From Cirrosporium novae-zelandiae (Eukaryota): DNA of 64,000 nucleotides. The notes below the pieces were generated by a model. It was not told the DNA's origin and did no database searches. It saw nothing but the letters and a program-made list of their open reading frames with translations. Positions 29,037 to 59,993 of this stretch are shown here, piece after piece. The translations under genes were made by a program, and so were the position numbers. The stretch spans positions 682,001-746,000 of the forward strand of contig JAPETS010000002.1 of the NCBI GenBank assembly GCA_026023565.1. Reading direction: 5' to 3'. The first letter of the stretch is position 1. Each line of letters starts with the position of its first letter.

Positions 29037-32000
29037 ATGACTCAACAGTGCCAACTTCCTACAAGCTATGGGCTAGCTGAAAAGCTCATTTGCCTAACTT
29101 ATCAAGTACGTTTATCCTCAGCATCTAAATATTACTCGATCTTGATTTTCATCAGGAGATAATTCCCTGTTATGCTATTGATCTACCACCCGAACTTGGT
29201 ACCGACAAGTACGAGTGGACTCTACTACGGAATAAAATCCAATCGAACGAACTCATACGAGATCTTCTTATGCGTGTTCATTCAGACCTTCGGGCTGGGA
29301 GTGAGCACCAGCTTGCTCACTGGCAGTTCATTGCTGATCTTGACAATTACGTCCCTCTTGGGATTCTTAGAATTGAAGGCCTGCAAAATTATGCTACCAT
29401 CGGTAATATGAGGTTGCGCATTTCACCATTATACGCACATCCGGAGGGAAATGATATCTGGACAGAGCTTAACCATAAGGAGCTCGGTACGTTGGTGGAC
29501 AGGATCAAGTCCAGCCCTAAGGAGGGTTCCTGTATCTCAATCTACACATGTGAAGCGCTCATCCATCTCAAAAAGGCAAACTGGATTCGAATATTTTATA
29601 GACCGCATCCAATGTCAGATGCAATGGCTAGCCTAAGAGTCTATTTCTTGCCAACCGATTGTGGACAGCGCTTCGTGACCGACAGGCGGAATTCAAAATT
29701 TGTAAGATATGTACGACATGTGTTAGAAGAGATCGATACCGCTCTGGAATCATGGGTTGGTTGTTTTAATCCGTCTTCTATACTCAAACCATTCTTCAGC
29801 CCACCTGCAGGAGAACAAGAGTCACTTTTCTATATCTTCAACACCTTATCATCTCCCTCCCCCTCACCTAATAATGTAAATAGTCCATACGCAACAGATG
29901 CTATGCTTAACTGCCTGGAGGATGGAATTGCGATTGAAGGCTTAAAGACTAAACTTTACCCATACCAACGTCGTTCTGCCGCTTCCATGATTCAACGTGA
30001 GAGTCTTCCAGCAAAGAGTTCGGATCCGAGATTTGAAAAGTGTGTGGGCCCAAGTGGTAGCACATTTTACTTCGACCGACAGACGACTATTATCCTCAAG
30101 CACAGACCTACATACGAGGATGCACGTGGTGGTATCTTGGCGGAGACCATGGGCTATGGCAAAACACTCATCACGTTGGCTGTGATTCTTGCCACCAAAG
30201 GTCATTTCCCCGAGATTCCGCCTCAATATGTTGATGAAAGCCCACTCCCACGACCGAAGACGGCTTCACTATTAGAAATGGCGGCTACCTGTATAAAAGC
30301 ACATAGTATCCCGTGGAGACCATGGTTTCAAAAACTTGAGGACCAGACCGGTACTTCATATAGTAGCTGTATAGAAGCTCTCGAACAAAGGGTTTGCTCT
30401 TACGAACTTCGAATAACTTCAAATGATCCAGCTAGACGGAGCAAACGAGCGCCGATGGCTGCATGTCAATTGATAAAGATGTGCTCAACCACAATTATCG
30501 TCGTTCCTCCAAGTTTACTTGTGCAGTGGCAGAGTGAAATTATGAAACATACAGAAGGTCTTCGCGTTCTCGTAATGAATTCTCTTTCCACCAATACTCC
30601 TCCAGCCGATGAGATAAGTCGATATGACATCATTCTCTTTTCGAAAAATCGATTCGATGCCGAATTTAACTCCGGTCATCGGAATCTACAATACCAGCTA
30701 TTAAATAAAGCATCTCACGCCAGCCCTCTCTACAGTCTCCATTTTCTACGTATCGTCATTGATGAGGGTCATGGTTTTGCCTCTACTAATACCTCTTCGG
30801 TACTGCTCATGGAAAACCTCCATGTACAAAGTCGATGGATTGTCAGTGGGACTCCCTCGAATAAGATGATAGGAGCCGAAGTTGGACTTGCTGCATATGA
30901 GACCAATGAAGTTGCTGCTTCTTCATCCTTGGGTGTCAATCAAGTGCTTCAGAATAGAAAAATTAGCGTACTTGACAACCAGGAAAAGAAAGAGCTCCAG
31001 AAACTAGGGACACTGGCCCAGAATTTCTTCAAGATTCAACCGTGGTCAAATTTGAATTCTGACACAGCATCCTGGCAAAAGTATATCCTGCCCACAGATG
31101 CTACAGGCAATAGACAAAAGGCTGTGTATTTGAGACGAGTATTGGAAGGACTTTTGGTACGTCATACCTGGTCAGACATTGAAAAGGAGCTTCCACTTCC
31201 TCAACTTTACAACAACATCGTGTACCTTGAACCTTCATTCTATGATAAGCTCTCTCAAAACTTATTCGTTGTTAATTTAACATCAAACGCGATTACTTCG
31301 GAAAGAGTTGATAGAGATTACATGTTCCACCCAGCAAATAGACAATACTTGAAGACTCTAATATCCAATTTAAGACACTCTGGATTCTGGTGGTGCGCAT
31401 TCTCCGAAGAAAGCGTGCAGGAGACGCTTCGGGTAAGCAGAGTGTATCTCGAAAAACAAGATAAAGTCTTAAGTCAAGCAGACAAACAGCTTTTGATAAA
31501 TGCAATTGCGATTGGGGAGAAGGCGTTGAGTTCTCTAGGCTGGAACGCATTCTTCCAATTAGGAGAAATTGGCGTGTTCGTTGACGACTTTCCAGAAAAC
31601 GCCAAAGCCCCGTGGGCTCTTCCTGGCTCCACAAATTCTATGCTTCTTGGAACAACCAAAGCAAGAGAAGCCCAAAAGTTCGTTGACAATCAGCTGTATG
31701 CTCTAGATCCATTCAATGGCCTTTTAGAGCAGGGAGAAACCGTTATGGGCAATGCATGGAGAGCTGGTCCTGACCCAAAAATACGTGATATTGAGGGGAA
31801 ACAGAATGATAGAGTTCCAGGGGTATGTAAGGTTGCTATTACAGAGGGACAAGTGACACGAAATCCAATTCTGGATGCATCTCGCCGTAGGCGGCTCCAG
31901 GGAGCCTTCGTTCCATCAGCCACGACGAGGTCAAAAGCTAAGGCTAAGCGTAGCTCGGGTGGTCCCCCTGTTATTTTAAAAGGAATCAACATTCCCTGGA

Positions 32001-33352
32001 GTCCAAAAATACAGAAATCAGCCCTCAAAAAATCCAAAGCGACTAATGTTCCACAAGTATCTCCGTTTATTACCAAACCTAAGATTGTCGGTACTTCTTC
32101 TGCAAAACTTAGTTACTTGATCGACCGTGTTCTTGTTTTACAGGAAGAAGAGAAAATCATCATATTTTACGAGGACAACAACATCGCCTTCTGGCTCGCT
32201 GAAGCTTTAGAGCTTGTCAGCATCAAATTTCTGATTTACGCTGGTACCCTGACGTGGCAGCTGCGAGCCGAGTACCTGGAGACTTTCAACAAGCCAGAAT
32301 CAGAGTTTAAGGTTTTGATCATGGATCTTGGTCAAGCAGCTCATGGGTTACATATTGCCAGTGCTTCAAGGATATTTTTTGTCAATCCAGTTTGGCAATC
32401 GAACATCGAAGGTATGTCTTATAAGAACTTCGCCGGACCGCCCCCAGCCGGCATATTTACGTCTCCTGTCTAGTATATCTCTTGTCTCGCACATATAGCT
32501 AATCTCAAATTGCTAATAGCACAAGCAATAAAGCGTGCACATCGAATTGGCCAAACTCGTCCAGTGTACGTCGAAACCCTTGTCCTCCGCGATACTCTCG
32601 AACATAAAATGCTACAACGCCGCAATGTCATGACAGCGTATGAAAGCGAACATGCAAAAGATAGTTTACTAGATGACGTCACTATGGAACATGTTATCCA
32701 GGAACAAGAATTTATCCCATTTGCTAATGGCGATGAAGGAATGGAAGAACAGATGGCGAGGTTGAATGTTCCACAGCAGCTGTTTGGGAGGTTTCTAGGA
32801 GTTGAGGAAACGACAGGAAGAGTGAGGAAAAGTAGTAATGATGGTCGCTCATTTGGCAGCCCTAAAAAGAAGAGGGCAAAAGTGACATTTCCATCCCTAA
32901 GTGATACCCAAAATCTTGATGTTGAAGTCAAACAATTTGGCTTACCACAGTCTCCCCTACATAGACGGTCAAACTCCAAGGCTAAGAAATTGGCCCGCTT
33001 CCAAAATCCAAGTGAAAGCATGGAACTGGATACCCAATTCTCTCCTTCTTCATTTACACCATCTTCCCTGCAATCTTTATCCTCATCCACTCCAGGGCAA
33101 CGTCACACTACCCCTGAATCCTACGACCTTACATCACAGCACGCACAAACCCGAGATGTATACATGCAAGATGGAGAAGAACTACCGCCTTTGTCGCCGA
33201 GCTCGCTTTTCGGCGGCAAGCCCAATAAGCCATCGCTACCCCCTCTTGCTCCTCCTAATGCTCCGTCTGCGAGAGAAATGGCCCAGAGAGTTAGATCTCC
33301 AACTGCTCCTAAAGGCAATAGCTATCTAAATGAATTCGATGGGAACGAGTAG
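29037..33352 (+). CDS. SNF2-family helicase/ATPase (Rad5/Rad16-like group)
   Basis: LYPYQ, GGILAETMGYGKT (motif I), IVIDEGH (II), WIVSGTP (III), AAHGLHI (V), EAQAIKRAHRIGQ (VI). Introns 29106-29155 and 32412-32519 keep the frame. Confidence 0.9.
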
Positions 33353-40268: not shown

Positions 40269-43200
40269 TTAACCATCTCCTACAGCGTCCACTCTAACGC
40301 CACCATCACCTTCCGTCATTGTTGTAGCCACTGTAACAACGCTATTATTTCTTTCACGCTCCCCCATTTCATCATCGCCATCTGATTGACTTTTTGAGTT
40401 TCTTGAAGGCGCAGTCGTTGCCCTTTTGAGAGGTTTGAGATTAAGGCCAATACTATTTTCATTTGTAGATGTGGATGAGGCTGAAGAAGTCGAAGGGTCC
40501 CCCGCCCCATCCCCGCCTGGAGGAGAACCATGACTGCCTGACATGATTCTCTCGAGAACTGCAACGCCGGGTTCGGCTCTTCGCTGGAATCCCCTTCGTC
40601 CAATGCTCATAGCCCCCAGTGCTGGCCTATACCTTCCATTACCTCCATTGCTACTGCCACCACCGCCACCAACTCTTTCCAACGCCCTGACTGTTAAAGC
40701 AAGTTCTCTTTCTAGCTCATCTTTGGCCTTTATATCTGTATCCCCTGATGCAGAATGCAGCTTTCTTCGATAAGCACGGAGGGTTCGACAGACCTGTTCA
40801 GTGCTCGTGTTCAGGCTTCCGAACTCCGAGATGTTACTGGCACTTTTGGTTCTTGTGCGAGGCGCCAAAGGTTGGCGACGCTTTGGATTTCCTACGGTAG
40901 CACGAGGAGAAGGAGGTGTAGGAGACCGATCACGTATGCTTTTCGCGGGGGTTTTTGCTGGAGTGAACAAGTTAGGTTGGGTGTTGGTAGGAGAACGACG
41001 ACTTGAAGGGAGAGGTGGGACAGGAGAGTTGGTGTTGAGTTTAGGTGCTTGAGCATGGAGGGAGTGTTTCGAGGTACGTTTACGTATTCGAGGCGGAGAT
41101 TGTGCTCTGGGTGTGGGTGCTCTGGGTGTGGGAGAATCTGCGCCATCATCGGGACCTTGGAAACTAGCAATTTCTGCTCGAGAAAGGATCCGGCGAATTG
41201 GTGGTCTTGATGCGGTAGGTTGGGGGGTGTTTGATCTTTCTTCCGGTTTTTCTCGCGGCTGGGGCGGCTCTTGGGGTGAAGGAGGCTTAAAAGAGAGATC
41301 CCAGATCATAATTGTGCCATCGAGCCCTGTACTAACCACATGGGATATCGAGGCGTCGCATGGTCCAAATTGCGTAGGTTCTATGAGCATTATATCACTG
41401 ACTCCTTCTGTGTGGCCAAACTCCCTGGTTAACAGAATATCCGTGTCGTAATCATATACTCGAATTGACTTATCGGTAGAAGCGACTCCAACTAGAACAT
41501 TGGAACCCGAACTAGGCCCACTTCGGGTTACTGCGAGCGAGTCCATGACCACACTATCATTACTTTCCGGGTCCGATGCTCGAAATGTATGGATATGCCG
41601 TCCAGAAGTAATATCATACTTCTGCACTTGTTTATCGGTTGTTGAAGCAATGAGCAAATCGGGTTGTTGAGGAACGATTGTCATTGACACTGGGCTTGCC
41701 TTGAAGGTAATAACCCGTAGACAAAAGTAGGCGACCGCTGATTCTTCAGCTGCCTCCCTGGTAGCACGCTGCCGTATGATAATTGTTCTATCTGAGGAGG
41801 ATGAAAGAAGTTTGTCCCCATCGTCGAGAAAAAGAAGGCCATTCACAGCGCCAACATGGTCGTCCAGAGTCTGGACTAGGTCAAACCCCTGCGTTGTTTT
41901 CTGGAATAATTGCACCATTCGATCCCTACCACTAGTCGCTACTAGGGTGGCTCCGGCCTTCTCATGAATGCTAATATCAGTAATTTCTCCTGCATGTGCT
42001 CTCACATCTGCAATCGCCATCCCATTAACGCCATTTAAGAGCCTAGAATATACATATTTAGCTCTTTAACAACCGCCTAACGTTGACAAGACTTACCTCA
42101 CAACACCATATTTATCCCCTGAAATAAAATTATCAGCCTCTGCCGTAGCCCTCAAAACTCTAAGTTCGTTAATTATATCATCATCGTTGCCTTGTAATTG
42201 ATCCACCGTAACTTGAAAGCTGCCTAGGTCATTTCCTTCTATATTCCAGAAACGAACCAATCCTCCCGAAGACCAGGTAAAAAGATCAGCCTCGAATTTG
42301 TTCGGCTTTTGCAGAGGCCTCACCCCTAGTACAGAATCTTGATGTGCAGACATTATTCGCGAGATTGATTTAATCCGCGCTCGGCCCTCATCAATGGCAA
42401 TTTCATGTATTTTAATAGAATGATCCGAATCTACTGAAATCAAATGGTCTGACATAATACCCATTGAAATCACTTTCAAAGAGGATTCTTGTGTAGCTGC
42501 ATGTAGAGATGGAGATGGAGGTGTGCTTTGTGAAACAGTTAGATTGTGAAACGGAATGGCCTGGATCTGGCCTGATTTTCCTCCTATCCATGCTTGGTTT
42601 TTAGGAGGATCGACTGCGATTGAGCTGATACTAAAACCAGCATGTGTGATAACGCTCAAACGTTGGTCACCGCTAGTATCATCAAGTAGACATATCTGAC
42701 CTTTATCGGAACAGACAATTGCTTTTTCAGAAGACAAGGCGGCGACGCAAGAAAAGCTGTCGTCGATTAATGAATTAAGGATGCAGTTTCTGCCTGCAAG
42801 GGCCCTAGGTGTTAAAGGTGAAGGCGTAGGTGTAGCTAGACTTTCTAAATTAAATCGGTGGATTTTGTTTGGTGAAATAGGAGCCATATCACCAACCCTC
42901 CAGACTTTGATGTGTCGCGTTCCCACCCTATAGAACCGCGTTAGCCAGCATTGGCAAGGGGAGGACAGTTTCCTACGTTATTAAATTGGTTCCCATCCAT
43001 GCGGCATGGCGGACGTTGGACGTGCACTTATTGGAAGAAAACAATCGTGCCGAGCCATTCTTTGCATTGATAGACCAGATGAAAAGAAAGCCATCGTTCA
43101 AGTTTCCAAGAGTAGCAAGGTACTGTGAATTGGGGCTAAAAGCAATGGCTCTCACCCCGAACGAATGGTCCATAAGAACCGAAAGCGGTATATCGGAAGC

Positions 43201-43856
43201 TGCATCAAGAGCAGTGGAAAATATCAAAACCCGAGGGTTATAACCGGTCTATTAAGGTTAGTAGAAAATTTGAGAGATCAGATGCCATTGAAGATACGTA
43301 CTTCACCAACAGCCAAATATTTGCCATCGGGACTCAACGAAACACATGTAACACTCTTAACTCTCTCCCTCGCCGTCCATGTTTTCGAGCTTGAATTATC
43401 TCCCCAGTCAGCGCCTGGCGATCCAGTCGCAGACACTCCAAATCCTGCATCTCGAAGGGAAGCGACAGTTCTATTGCGGTTTTCCGGAGTACCTGTAGGT
43501 GTAGAGGGACTATAAAAAGAAACGGTAGGATTGACGGGATTTGTTTGCGGTCTTGCCCGAAAGAACCGCTGTGAAATTTCAAGATTGTCATCTAAATGTG
43601 CTAGTATTGCTGCAGATCCTGCACACAGTGCAAAGGTTCGTTCGGAAGGTAAAGAATCGAAACCACAAGGAGAAGAAGTAGTGGTGCCGATAACCCGTCG
43701 CAAAGAAAGAGATGGTTGGTTCCAATTTGAACGGGCTTGAGACCGAGAAGGCGGTCTTCTATTAGGATAAGGAGATGTTGCGGGCGAAAGAAAAGGCCCA
43801 GAAGCATTGTTCGAAGTCGCAGGTCTCACCCTGGAGGTTGAAGGAGTGGATGCCAT
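40269..43856 (-). CDS. WD40-repeat protein, MAPKBP1/WDR62-like
   Basis: LSLRRVIGTT, CVSLSPDGKYLAVGETGYNPRV, DHSFGVRAIAFSPNS, GHTEGVSD and DGTIMIWD, followed by a Pro/Ser-rich tail with EQVCRTLRAYRRKL. Introns 43301-43249, 42976-42928 and 42096-42043. Confidence 0.88.
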
Positions 43857-46076: not shown

Positions 46077-46702
46077 CTATGCCCTATCAGGAATGAGTCC
46101 CGACCTTGCATCACAAGCTTTTCCCAAAAGAATACATGACTGGGGAATATAAACGATGGATAAGGGGATTATAAAAGGAATAAAGAATATTACTTACAAT
46201 AAAGCCAATGTCAGATCTCCTCTGATGCTAGCTTTAAGTTCCACCTCGACTTCTAGGTTTAGATCCAGCTTTAACTTCAGACCATCTTGTTCATTAGGAT
46301 CACTTTTCTTCTTTGTTGATTGTTGCGACTGCCTATTCCGATTTCCCGACATGGGCATTTGCTGTTGTTGCTGTTGCTGCTGTGGTTGCATCTGTCCGTT
46401 TTGCGCTCCACCGTATCCCATTTGACCGTTCATGCTTGATGGTTGAAGTTGCATGCTATGTTGGGCTTGAGAGCCGGCTAGGGCTCCATTTTGCTGAACT
46501 TGAGCTCCAGATTGAGCCATCGATTGTGGTGGACGTCTAGAGCGACGTCTCCGGGCTAAAGGAGAAGAGATGATATCAGTTTCCAGTACTATAATCTACA
46601 CGGCCTATGGATGAGATTAATACCTGGTTTCTGGGGCTGGGGCTGAGGCTGAAGTTGGGATTCCGTCTCAGAGGAATAGGTTTCCTCTGCTTCAGTAGAC
46701 AT
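46077..46702 (-). CDS. Q-rich hypothetical protein with C-terminal LKLKLDLNLEVEVELKASIRGDLTLALL motif (paralog A)
   Basis: ATG 46702 gives MSTEAEETYS. Intron 46623-46556 joins in frame to the ORF at 46520-46194. Probable terminal intron 46197-46084 and 7-nt last coding exon (G GCA TAG); the unspliced stop is at 46194. Confidence 0.8.
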
Positions 46703-48293
46703 TTTTCACAGGTAAGATAACAACGGTGGGTTGCAAATAGATATACTATGGAATGTTTAGAGAGTTGAAAGTATATTGTTCAAATATGCCTGTAAATAGT
46801 GGGGGGTTCAGAGTGAGATTGCAGCACGTTGTATATGCACGATAGACAAAAACACGTCTTGAGAAAAGATTTTCGGAAACGGTGAACGGAACGAAAGCAA
46901 ATGATAGTATTGAGGGTGGCGGGGTGAATGGGAGTGTTTGAAAAGAAACCTGCTTTGAGAATTCCGACAAAATATCTCAGCCTACAAGTACATGCATAGG
47001 AGTGATAGGTGAAGAGGTAAAGGTAATAATGGCATGATGGGTACGAAAGTAATGTGGGGATGGATTTAGATTTGAGGAGATGGAATAATCCTTTCCCCCT
47101 CATACATCATTGGAACAAGGGGGGTAGTGATCACAAGTAGTCCACTCGAGTGATAAGACCAAGATTGACTTAAATGACGGGATTTAACTGTGGGCTTTGG
47201 GTTTTTGGGCTGAGGCGAAAGTATATTTTGGATGCATGGTTGGAAGGCTGGAAAGGCTGTGCTTTTCCCAAGAGCTTGTCTTTAAACGTCATACTTTACT
47301 TTAGTCCTGTCTCCACAATAACCATCCCCCCATTATCTCTTTTATTTGAAAAGTAATAATGTTGAAGTATATACTCATGGGTAAAATTAAGTGAGCGTGT
47401 CCACGTACACGATAACCCAAATGGCACTAAGTACTGGATGGATGCAGGGACAATCCCTCCTTATATTATTACACTTGAAACCAGCAAACATATGTATAAT
47501 ATATTGTGACTATGTTTTGTATTTTTTTATTACCTAGTTACGTACATATATTGTAAGTTAAAAAATCATTCTATGCTCCATCTAGATCAATCTCTCTAGC
47601 TGCCGTAATTTAGATGTTAAATCTAAGATTCTCTAAATGTCTAAGCGATCTACCAAGTAGAGGAGATGGTAGCTTGTTGCAGCTACTTTAACCGATTCCC
47701 CAACCCTACACCGCTCAAGATGGCATAGATAGCGTGACATTGAGAAACGTTTGATTCATTTCTACTGTACATGTTAAAATGCTTGATACCTGGTTTTACG
47801 GTCAGAAGTACTCGGTGATTACGCATACGCTTACCAAGTCTGGCTTAGCCTGCATTATTTATTCATGCACTATTACACGGTGCAGTTAAAATGTGACCTT
47901 TTCGGCCTCCTGGTCCCCTGTTCAATTCCCTGGAGGTGTGGTTTATTCTGCGATCACAGTGGATCGCCGAGGTGGCCCACCATTACCAATCTTAAACTAA
48001 ACATGAACTAATATTATGAGTTCATATCCATGGATCCCTAAACCACCATGAACGAATGGCGGGTTTTCTTGCGTCATATCCTCTCGAGGTCCTGTTTGAC
48101 AGCACTTCTGTCAAGTTCGGAAGCCGAATAGTTACACCTGATCAGCATCTTGGGTGTAAAATAATTCCTGCTTCTTTCATCCTACCTGCAAATGGTTATC
48201 TCATCGCTGCATTCATCCGCTTTATCAATAACTCTGCTTACCCCTCTCATTGCCCCTTATATCTTCATCATATCCATCTCTTAAAACCTCAAA

Positions 48294-49116
48294 ATGTCTG
48301 CTGAAGAAACCAACAAGACTACCGAATCCAAACTTTCTGCCGGTGCCAACGGAGCAGGTAGTGCATCATTAGCAGGAGGCATCAACGGTTCAGCATCTCG
48401 TAAGACCTCCCAGCAGACCAAGAAAACCCCACCCAAACTACGAAAGAAGTCCCAACAGCTAGACAATCAACCTGCCATCGAAGACGAGCCTCAACAACAG
48501 CCAACTCCAGAGAAATCAGATCTAGAGAGAGAACAAGCACCCGAACAATCAGACACCGCCGAACTCTCAGAACCCGAACCCGAACCTGAGCCAACCCCAG
48601 CACCTAAGAAGAAACCGCGTCGGCGTAACATGTACCAGGATAGTGACACTGACAGCACTTCTCAAGGCCAAATGGAAGCGTATCAACAATCCCAACCTAA
48701 GCCCCAGCGCAGGTCACGTACCAAGCCAAGGTATAATGGTGGAGGTGGAGGAGGTCCCATGGATGCCGTAGGCCAGGTCGGTCAGACCGTTAATGGTGTC
48801 GCTGGAGGTGCTGGAGATTTAGTCCAAAATACGGCTGGCAATGCTGTTGGACAAGTTGGTAATGCTGCTGGCGGTGTCGTTGGACAAACACATGAGGCGC
48901 TTGGTGGCTTACTCCATTCAGGCCAACCACAAGGCGGCGGCGATAAAGGCAAAGATGAACAGTTGAGATTGCGGCTTGACCTTAACCTCGACATCGAAGT
49001 TCAATTGAAAGCCAAGATACATGGTGATTTAACTCTAGGCTTATTGTAAGGAAGCCCTTCTCACATTTCCCTCCTCCAGCTACATGCTAACTGACTTTCG
49101 GTCATAAAGGAACTGA
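48294..49116 (+). CDS. Q/G-rich hypothetical protein with C-terminal LRLRLDLNLDIEVQLKAKIHGDLTLGLL motif (paralog B)
   Basis: 251-aa ORF with PE repeats and AVGQVG repeats. Probable terminal intron 49046-49109 (GTAAGG...GCTAAC...AAG) and 7-nt last coding exon (G AAC TGA). Confidence 0.85.
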
Positions 49117-58669: not shown

Positions 58670-59371
58670 CTACAACCCCAACGGATTCTCCCCCGTCTGT
58701 TCCTTCCCCCCAAACCCCTCCCCCCTCAATTTCTCCCACTCCCTCTCTTTCCTCTTCTCCTCCCTCTCATCCAGCCGCTTCAAATCCTCATTCCCGCACC
58801 CAACGCCCAACACCCCCCCCCAAGCCTCACCCGCCTTGAACACCCCGCCCACGGTCGAACCCACCAGTGCGCCTACGGGCTGGGTCGTCTTTTCGAAGAC
58901 TGTGCCTAGGGGCTTGCCAACGGGTGAGAGGGTCTTTGAGATTTTTTGAGAGGCGCGGGCGCCGGGGGCGGAGAGGAGGAGACCTTCGGATGAGGAGGTG
59001 CTGCTTAGGTTGTAGGCTTGGGAGGTTTTGTTTTCTTTTTTTTTCTGTTGAGAGTCTTTGGGGTTGGGGTTGGGGTTGGGATCATCTCCTTGTTTGGCCG
59101 ATGGGGTTTCGGTTTCGTCTTTGGTGGCGGCGGGGTTGGAAGTAGACGATGTCGGATCCTCAGATTTCGATTCTGTTTCTTTAGTCGCTATAGTGGTGGT
59201 GCCGACTTGATCACCCAAAGGTAAATGCGTAGGAAACGCTTCCTCTCCCCCCTCTCTCGACGTTTCCTGAGACATAAGACCCGATTCTTGAATTCGTTGT
59301 TGGAGCTCTTCTGCCGTGCCGGGGGGAATCACACCCGAGTCTTGGATACGTCGGAGGAGTTGTTCTGCCAT
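58670..59371 (-). CDS. Hypothetical fungal protein, 233 aa, ending GGKEQTGENPLGL
   Basis: ATG ORF with an internal repeat (AEQLLRRIQDSG / AEELQQRIQESG), a Gly-rich amphipathic segment (PVGALVGSTVGGVFKAG) and a conserved-looking C-terminal tail. Function unknown. Confidence 0.75.
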   Translation of the reverse strand: MAEQLLRRIQDSGVIPPGTAEELQQRIQESGLMSQETSREGGEEAFPTHLPLGDQVGTTTIATKETESKSEDPTSSTSNPAATKDETETPSAKQGDDPNPNPNPKDSQQKKKENKTSQAYNLSSTSSSEGLLLSAPGARASQKISKTLSPVGKPLGTVFEKTTQPVGALVGSTVGGVFKAGEAWGGVLGVGCGNEDLKRLDEREEKRKEREWEKLRGEGFGGKEQTGENPLGL

Positions 59372-59993
59372 TCTTTCTTTCTTTGTTTCTTTCTCTCTCT
59401 CTCTCTTCCTTTTTGGTTTGGGTTTTTAGAGAGAGCTGGAGATAATGGTTCTAAAAGGGGTTTTCTTTTCTTTTTTTTTGGGGTAGGGAAAATGGATTGG
59501 CGGAAAAGTTTAGAGTGAATGAATGAGAGTTGGATACTTATCTAGAGATTATCATGGCATAGGAATGGTGTTTTGGGGATGACGTCGATGACGTTGTGGT
59601 TGGCGGTGGTGGGCGAAACCCTGGACCCTGAGGTCCGTTTTTTTGGTCGGCTGATTTGAAATTTGAATTTCGTGTAACCTGTAGGTGGTATTGCTTTTGG
59701 GGATCCATGTACTTGGGAGAATTGGTAGCAAATCATTGCTATGATTGTTTTGTTTTGTTGTGGGCTTAGAAGTCCAACGGTTATTTCATGGTTGAAGGAG
59801 GCGAATCCACATACATAATATTTACAGACAAGGCCCCCCCTTCCCATTGAATGAGACCATACAGAGAAAAATTGTTTGCAAACGTTAAATAGGATATGCC
59901 CACACAGATTTGAACCAATTCGTTATCTATTATATTTTTTTAAAAATTATCAATTTCAACAAGTAAAATGAGTACATGGTAATCTGTACAACA

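Follow-up and report, generated by a model that had tools for sequence, protein, structure and literature searches.

Why should a fungus keep, side by side, two genes whose proteins agree in little except their last 28 residues? The question is raised by a gene pair, here called A and B, in a 64,000-nucleotide stretch of DNA from Cirrosporium novae-zelandiae (contig JAPETS010000002.1, positions 682,001 to 746,000; hereafter the window, in whose numbering positions are given). The DNA is fungal and contains introns, and the genome to which it belongs measures 31.4 Mb. An earlier, sequence-only reading had suggested that the two proteins hetero-polymerise through their common C-terminal motif. 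We propose, at a probability of roughly 0.55, that A and B co-assemble by means of amphipathic beta-strands, giving a fibre or shell inside the cell from which disordered tails extend. The family that they represent is real, unnamed and widespread, and has no Pfam, PDB or named ESM Atlas match.

The two genes are divergent and stand head-to-head, with 1591 bp from ATG to ATG (the sequence-only reading had given about 1.6 kb), and both of the end peptides read earlier are found in the window sequence. Gene A occupies the minus strand in three exons and encodes 147 residues ending in ..LLA and a stop, while gene B occupies the plus strand in two exons and encodes 252 residues ending in ..GLLN and a stop; no internal stops interrupt either reading frame. 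The parts of the two genes are the following.

46624..46702, minus strand: gene A exon 1, with the ATG at 46702 and an acidic P/Q-rich start; GT donor at 46623
46556..46623, minus strand: gene A intron 1, 68 nt, GT..ACTGAT..AG, predicted from splice signals and the open frame rather than from RNA
46198..46555, minus strand: gene A exon 2, with the Arg patch, a Q/S/G-rich disordered body and the C-terminal motif
46533..46553, minus strand: gene A Arg patch RRRRSRR (Arg clusters are a family trait)
46198..46280, minus strand: gene A 28-residue alternating motif, A subtype (G preceding, K2, E14)
46084..46197, minus strand: gene A intron 2, 114 nt, phase 2, within the last motif codon; GTAAGT donor, predicted acceptor
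46077..46083, minus strand: gene A last micro-exon, which completes Leu and adds Ala and a stop; predicted from homolog ends
46703..48293, no strand: common upstream region between both ATGs, 1591 bp, a possible bidirectional promoter
48294..49045, plus strand: gene B exon 1, with disordered S/T/K, P/E and Arg segments, 11-mer repeats and the C-terminal motif
48606..48626, plus strand: gene B basic patch KKKPRRR
48759..48914, plus strand: gene B residues 156-207, a run of G/A/V/N-rich 11-mers whose periodicity is that of an amphipathic helix, as is usual in the B subtype
48963..49045, plus strand: gene B 28-residue alternating motif, B subtype (Q preceding, R2, R4, Q14, K18)
49046..49109, plus strand: gene B intron, 64 nt, GTAAGG..GCTAAC..AAAG, at the position of intron 2 of A
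49110..49116, plus strand: gene B last micro-exon, which completes Leu and adds Asn and a stop; 22 short homolog contigs carry the spliced ..LN end

Over their final 32 residues A and B share 63% identity, and 20 of the 32 aligned columns do not vary. The bodies that precede them are unalignable (best BLASTP E=9.7), as the sequence-only reading had it, and a basic patch is present in both, again as described. When B was used as a query against the 31.4-Mb genome, A was recovered at E=2.3e-7, and A and B were the sole matches at E<=10; this motif search scores the best candidates only, and a divergent query gave the same two genes. The Pfam scan of A exon 2 and the whole of B returned no family above the cut-off, LEA and perilipin included, and the earlier statement that no NLR or HeLo domain is present holds for these same sequences. 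The ESM Atlas model of B (predicted local distance difference test score, pLDDT, 0.45; predicted template modelling score, pTM, 0.11) agrees with disorder. Whole B matched unnamed Ascomycota clusters only in the ESM Atlas, and the motif gave no usable named match there. Among six divergent loci, a comparison of the upstream region yielded no convincing conserved element or common promoter words.

The motif is carried by 330 of the 337 proteins that we collected, in 126 distinct 30-mers (3528 motif residues), on which the following statistics are based. Aliphatic residues fill odd positions 1-19, 23 and 25 in 98-100% of the variants and make up a hydrophobic face that reads LLLLLIVLAIGLLL, while the polar face runs in the order R/K, R/K, D/E, N, D/E, E, Q/E, K, K/S/R, H/R, D, T. 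N8, A17, G21 and D22 are invariant, K16 is kept in 99% and E12 in 98%, and one proline and 17 aromatic residues occur in the whole set. The alternation of hydrophobic and charged residues noticed earlier is borne out by the hydrophobic moment at 180 degrees, which is 0.95 for B and 0.88 for A and was equalled by 0 of 5000 shuffles of each; at the helical angle of 100 degrees the moments are 0.02 and 0.11, and 99.5% and 77% of the shuffles, respectively, score higher. Motif identity remains at about 80-97% across the main filamentous-ascomycete classes. Docking peptides usually conserve one face, over fewer residues. The proteins are otherwise disordered and evolve fast, yet both faces of the motif are kept over 28 residues; we infer that its two faces and its two edges all make contacts, as they would in a self-assembled sheet. 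That the motif matches no characterised domain was also confirmed: 26 of 27 motif sequences have no Pfam family at E<=10, the remaining one has a weak match to Stu2_CTS (E=0.44), and a PDB sequence search gave 0 matches at E<=10. The motif is followed by 0-1 residue in 109 full-length homologs, which were chosen for this property, and the terminal residue is Ala in 7 of the 109. The extra residue comes from the micro-exon, as spliced homologs establish for B and as appears probable for A.

Two subtypes can be distinguished among the 126 variants, 67 of them A-type and 48 B-type, with 11 others. A-type motifs are marked by G before the motif, K2 and E14, and B-type motifs by Q or T before the motif, R2, R4, mostly Q14, and K18. 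Position 14 is E in 100% of A and Q in 83% of B, and position 2 is K in 94% of A and R in 100% of B; these subtype-fixed residues indicate two maintained paralogs. In 93 (62 B, 31 A) of 116 metagenome motif copies the second base of the last motif codon is followed by a GT donor, and intron 2 of gene A keeps its position in 31/31 A-type copies of the fetched loci. The other 23 copies are all B and end in ..LN and a stop; 22 of them are contigs of 1.0-1.5 kb that resemble spliced transcripts and one is intronless genomic DNA. Homologs of B are therefore transcribed and spliced, and no spliced A was seen among the 116 copies, whose loci were B-anchored. A and B are ancient subtypes with a common intron in the last motif codon.

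The bodies have traits of their own. In the 109 full-length homologs they are poor in order-promoting residues (mean ILVFWYC fraction 0.13), a 19-residue hydrophobic stretch occurs in 7, and clusters of at least five Arg in ten residues occur in 58, against 2.6 expected from shuffles. The 11-mer region of B has its best angle at 98 degrees (0 of 3000 shuffles as good), and in the same helix test 63 of 124 B-type homologs score above 95% of shuffled versions of themselves. A second motif, SM[DNM]GP..ARA.RGEIP, is present in 22 of 73 A-type proteins and undetectable in A of the window, where 64 of 1000 shuffles score equally well. The Q-rich body ascribed to A is accurate for this protein (27% Q in the exon-2 body) but not for the family, since many A orthologs are D/E/Y-rich instead.

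The second line of evidence is linkage. A metagenome scan confirmed 409 stretches, and the best 80 by likeness to B were analysed. A second motif gene lies 1.3-2.6 kb away in 36 of the 80 loci (23 sequence groups), and every one of the 20 loci (12 sequence groups) whose flanks reach at least 2.8 kb upstream and 2 kb downstream has a partner; each of the 44 partnerless loci has too short a flank on at least one side. The test runs from B to its partner only, and a Sordariomycete variant of B lies outside the loci. Neighbouring locus tags tell the same story in Aspergillus flavus (BDV35DRAFT_390337/390338; KAB8249252.1, KAB8249253.1) and Aspergillus ambiguus (BDV59DRAFT_205254/205255), and one fused public gene model (P0185) joins A and then B in one protein. 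Thus, of the linked divergent pairs that the sequence-only reading had envisaged, the linkage stands and the orientation does not: in 24 of the 36 paired loci B and A stand in tandem, in that order, while 7 are divergent A/B as in the window and 5 are divergent B/B-like. Linkage outlasts inversion, as both tandem and divergent forms occur. In two loci a third, more divergent paralog (C type) lies downstream of B and A (L008:9495-9648 and L014:13753-13906), with a repeated half motif in another frame directly after it.

Matches to the family are numerous. The last 44 residues of B matched 161 of 166 candidate proteins, the 120 listed ones at 73-100% local identity, and the C-terminal end of A matched 19 of 19 candidates. 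When 1.84 billion representatives were searched with a profile built from 27 motif copies, 1066 clusters matched at E<=1e-3, of which 326 reached E<=1e-10; the best 150 of the 1066 were inspected. The named carriers include Aspergillus, Penicillium, Thermomyces, Emmonsia, Exophiala, Aureobasidium, Pseudocercospora, Cenococcum, Pyrenophora, Coniochaeta, Trichoderma, Podospora, Diaporthe, Icmadophila and Pycnora, genera that we take to span the main Pezizomycotina classes. In one Lentinula edodes record (P0200) a single predicted protein contains the motif twice, probably through fusion of two tandem paralogs, which suggests that the family and its pairing reach Basidiomycota. No yeast name occurs among the matches listed, which does not in itself establish absence from yeasts. 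Viral contigs gave 0 confirmed out of 33 candidates, and a scan of 185,579 prokaryote genomes gave one locus, a divergent A/B pair on the chromosome of a Lapillicoccus metagenome-assembled genome (L108, OZ255840.1:4937765-4943851). The locus has a spliceosomal-type GTAAGT donor past the motif and a GC content of about 50%; we reject a bacterial origin for it and read it as fungal DNA that probably ended up in a bacterial record during assembly.

In the assembly that we propose, A and B would be two subunits of one intracellular structure, each with a long tail, disordered and charged, and an amphipathic beta segment of 28 residues at the C-terminus. The segments would pair edge to edge, probably antiparallel and with a turn at His-Gly-Asp, where the invariant Gly-Asp would fit a three-residue turn that preserves the hydrophobic phase; charge complementarity of the polar faces is best in the antiparallel registers i+j=14 and 26, for A with A, B with B and A with B alike. 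The resulting sheet would have one all-aliphatic and one salt-bridged charged face. The aliphatic faces would be buried either on a second sheet, giving a fibre, or on a lipid or gas phase, giving a shell, and the tails with their Arg and acidic clusters would point outward. The 11-mer amphipathic helix of B may tether the assembly to a membrane or lipid surface, and the genes would be kept linked because both subtypes are needed together.

Known systems offer partial parallels to such an assembly. The curli proteins CsgA/CsgB and the Streptomyces rodlins RdlA/RdlB are adjacent paralogs thought to build one beta-rich polymer; A and B are likewise adjacent paralogous genes, but, unlike these secreted bacterial proteins, they have no signal peptide, are mostly disordered and give no sequence match. 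The SPA proteins of Neurospora, which aggregate at the septal pore, are also disordered proteins of filamentous ascomycetes, a likeness by description. According to the accessible part of one source, a screen in Aspergillus oryzae demanded E<=1e-100 between species (PMC10023807), a cut-off that short A/B-like proteins would probably fail. GvpA, as the accessible text of another describes it, is a small protein in which a beta-hairpin and a helix give a dense hydrophobic face lining the gas vesicle, with salt bridges between monomers (PMC9994262). Small size and clustered paralogs are points of likeness to A/B, whose predicted sheet would also have a one-sided hydrophobic face and salt bridges. 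Since the motif sequences matched neither the GvpA family, with its alpha-beta-beta-alpha fold, in Pfam nor any PDB sequence at E<=10, GvpA is a works-like comparison at most.

Several observations weigh against co-assembly. The sole structure model, an AlphaFold2 prediction of a single 32-residue chain, is one helix (residues 2-31, pLDDT 94; five models at 94, 94, 86, 69 and 68), which is at odds with the absent helical amphipathicity; isolated short peptides are often modelled as helices. A hetero-polymer has no support over a homo-polymer, because the charge scores of the three pairings are equal, and in 5 of the 36 pairs B stands beside another B-like gene instead of A. Among the recurrent neighbours in 24 loci and the window, a WD40 gene occurs in the window and 3 loci and DUF2470 in 11 of the 24. 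The pair thus sits in a wider syntenic block, so that part of its linkage may be inherited duplication history, and linkage alone is no proof of physical partnership. The polymer put forward by the sequence-only reading therefore fares unevenly: the linked pairs and the missing domain match favour it, the helical single-chain model does not, and the polymer itself is deduced from a pattern in the sequence.

Other explanations of the motif have to be set against co-assembly. It could be a docking strand for a conserved globular partner, acting by beta-augmentation or as an EAR-like LxLxL/DLN co-repressor signal, with A and B as parallel disordered regulators and the Arg patch as a nuclear or nucleic-acid signal. 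The EAR consensus is LxLxL or DLNxxP, and the motif holds LxLxL and DLNL; papers listed for the string DLNLD are mostly on plant R2R3-MYB repressors. The strong enrichment of Arg clusters would fit as well, and a small disordered protein that carries a single motif at its end is a typical form of adaptor. We nevertheless consider docking unlikely, since conservation on both faces over 28 residues far exceeds an EAR motif, the proline of DLNxxP is missing, and named homologs have no hydrophobic N-termini. Moreover, TOPLESS is a plant protein, whereas the family covers saprobes and lichen fungi, and the obligatory pairing would be left unexplained. If, on the other hand, the Leu face of the motif and the 11-mer helix of B served to cover lipid droplets or membranes while cells rest or dry out, A and B would be protectants that form no defined polymer. 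LEA group 3 proteins, perilipins and alpha-synuclein are 11-mer amphipathic-repeat proteins, and residues 156-207 of B resemble them in their 11/3-helix periodicity at 98 degrees and in preceding an aggregation-type segment; the bodies are hydrophilic and disordered. In 4 loci the pair has a DUF3659 gene as its neighbour, 3 public gene models join such a gene to B, and the accessible part of a study of Aspergillus oryzae places LdrD, a DUF3659 protein, among its lipid-droplet regulating proteins (10.1101/2022.11.24.517872). Yet the B repeat is short and G-rich, matches none of these families and is absent from A, no more than 63 of the 124 B homologs pass the helix test, lipid-coating helices tolerate substitution whereas the motif has invariant N, A, G and D and a near-invariant K, and the DUF3659 gene of the own genome is unlinked to the pair. 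We regard a coating role as about as unlikely as docking.

Taken at face value, the confident single-chain model would make the Leu-rich motif a helix in a small coiled-coil bundle, of A with B or of either with itself. This is improbable, as the helical moment is at or below that of the shuffles, there is no heptad, beta-branched I/V is retained at positions 11, 13 and 19, and Gly21 is invariant. Least probable is a fungal amyloid signalling pair, in which an NLR template acts on an effector, and the analogy with HET-s and NLR signalling drawn by the sequence-only reading fails on both architecture and composition. HRAM/HET-s, PP, sigma and PUASM resemble A/B in their adjacent genes, their common beta-pattern motif of about 25 residues and their occurrence in Pezizomycotina. 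However, these amyloid motifs lie at the N-terminus of the NLR and the C-terminus of the effector and are rich in N, Q and G, according to the accessible text of 10.1101/2022.03.16.484565, where the PUASM pattern reads FxGxGxQxxGxGxF and differs from the A/B motif. The latter is C-terminal in both partners, charged and Leu-rich (N+Q+G account for only 340 of 3528 residues), without a Pfam match, highly conserved and near single-copy, unlike polymorphic NLR loci. By Pfam, no HeLo, HeLo-like, PNP_UDP or sesB effector domain precedes it in A exon 2, B or the 120 listed near-length homologs, A and B contain no enzyme domain, and no NLR occurs among the recurrent neighbours or the scanned nearby genes of the window. 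The lack of any NLR or effector domain thus speaks against signalling of the HET-s type, which we hold to be largely refuted.

One specific form of the proposed shell deserves mention. Concentric bodies, according to the accessible part of PMC12536064, have a proteinaceous wall and a gas-filled centre, measure about 0.3 um and occur in lichenised and non-lichenised fungi. The A/B family might supply their wall protein, with the Leu-only face lining the gas core and the charged disordered tails making up the outer layers, and a literature search on these bodies found no paper that names their protein. The fit is suggestive only, and we think the identification quite unlikely. It is weakened by the presence of the family in Aspergillus and Trichoderma, for which we know of no reports of such bodies.

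How the family came to be overlooked may have a simple explanation in its gene structure, as public models often miss the terminal micro-exon and thereby acquire ..LLYV.. tails or fusions, for example to a TrmE/MnmE GTPase (P0186-P0191, P0194, P0092). Of 15 longer matches (441-2000 residues), none has a NACHT/NB-ARC Pfam domain, and the 9 that were inspected look like gene-model fusions or terminal-intron read-throughs, so that we reject them as real domain fusions. Precomputed Pfam annotation is empty for 119 of the 120 listed near-length homologs, the other one having PF00239. Searches of the literature by motif string, gene identifier and description, whose coverage excludes most subscription journals and some supplements, found no paper on the family, and the accessible parts of PMC3689799 and PMC5309816 hold nothing relevant to it. 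Aspergillus appears to hold two A-type and two B-type genes. The Aspergillus niger ortholog name of P0092, An12g10450, by its identifier adjoins An12g10440, which a table in PMC4869263 gives as a putative glycosyl transferase (with Afu4g14070 and AO090010000193); An12g10450 is missing from that ortholog table.

Some neighbouring genes may be noted. The WD40 gene of the window (40269-43856, minus strand) is MABP1/WDR62-like; at L006, L054 and L058 relatives of it stand beside A and B. Six loci have an SNF2-like gene near the pair, and the window holds one too, a putative ortholog, at 29129-33352. At 58670-59425 (minus strand) the window encodes a disordered protein that has an amphipathic, G-rich stretch, ends in ..ENPLGL and gives no Pfam match at E<=0.001. 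The DUF3659 gene beside the pair (L070:2954-4912, minus strand; also L038, L042 and L072) encodes a long protein, largely disordered, that has a single DUF3659 unit and is fused to B in the Sordariales models P0188, P0192 and P0198. Its C-terminal motif, here called D-type, ..DIxLxVxxTxxxIxITIRIPT.., alternates but is unlike the A/B motif. Homology of the two motifs was rejected at a profile probability of 1.5%. A search of the own genome with the D-type query did not recover this motif, and the unlinked DUF3659 gene there is large, with 14 DUF3659 matches (C105:27685-33001, plus strand). The DUF3659/D-type protein is possibly a further component of the system to which the pair belongs.

What remains is a 28-residue element in a linked gene pair for which our searches found neither a family name, a structure nor a paper. 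That the motif is so constrained and the pair kept linked points to a basic cell-biological role. If A and B polymerise, they would form a new intracellular two-component beta assembly. If the connection with concentric bodies were true, the protein of a long-described structure would be identified, and fungi would possess a eukaryotic, independently evolved analogue of the gas vesicle.

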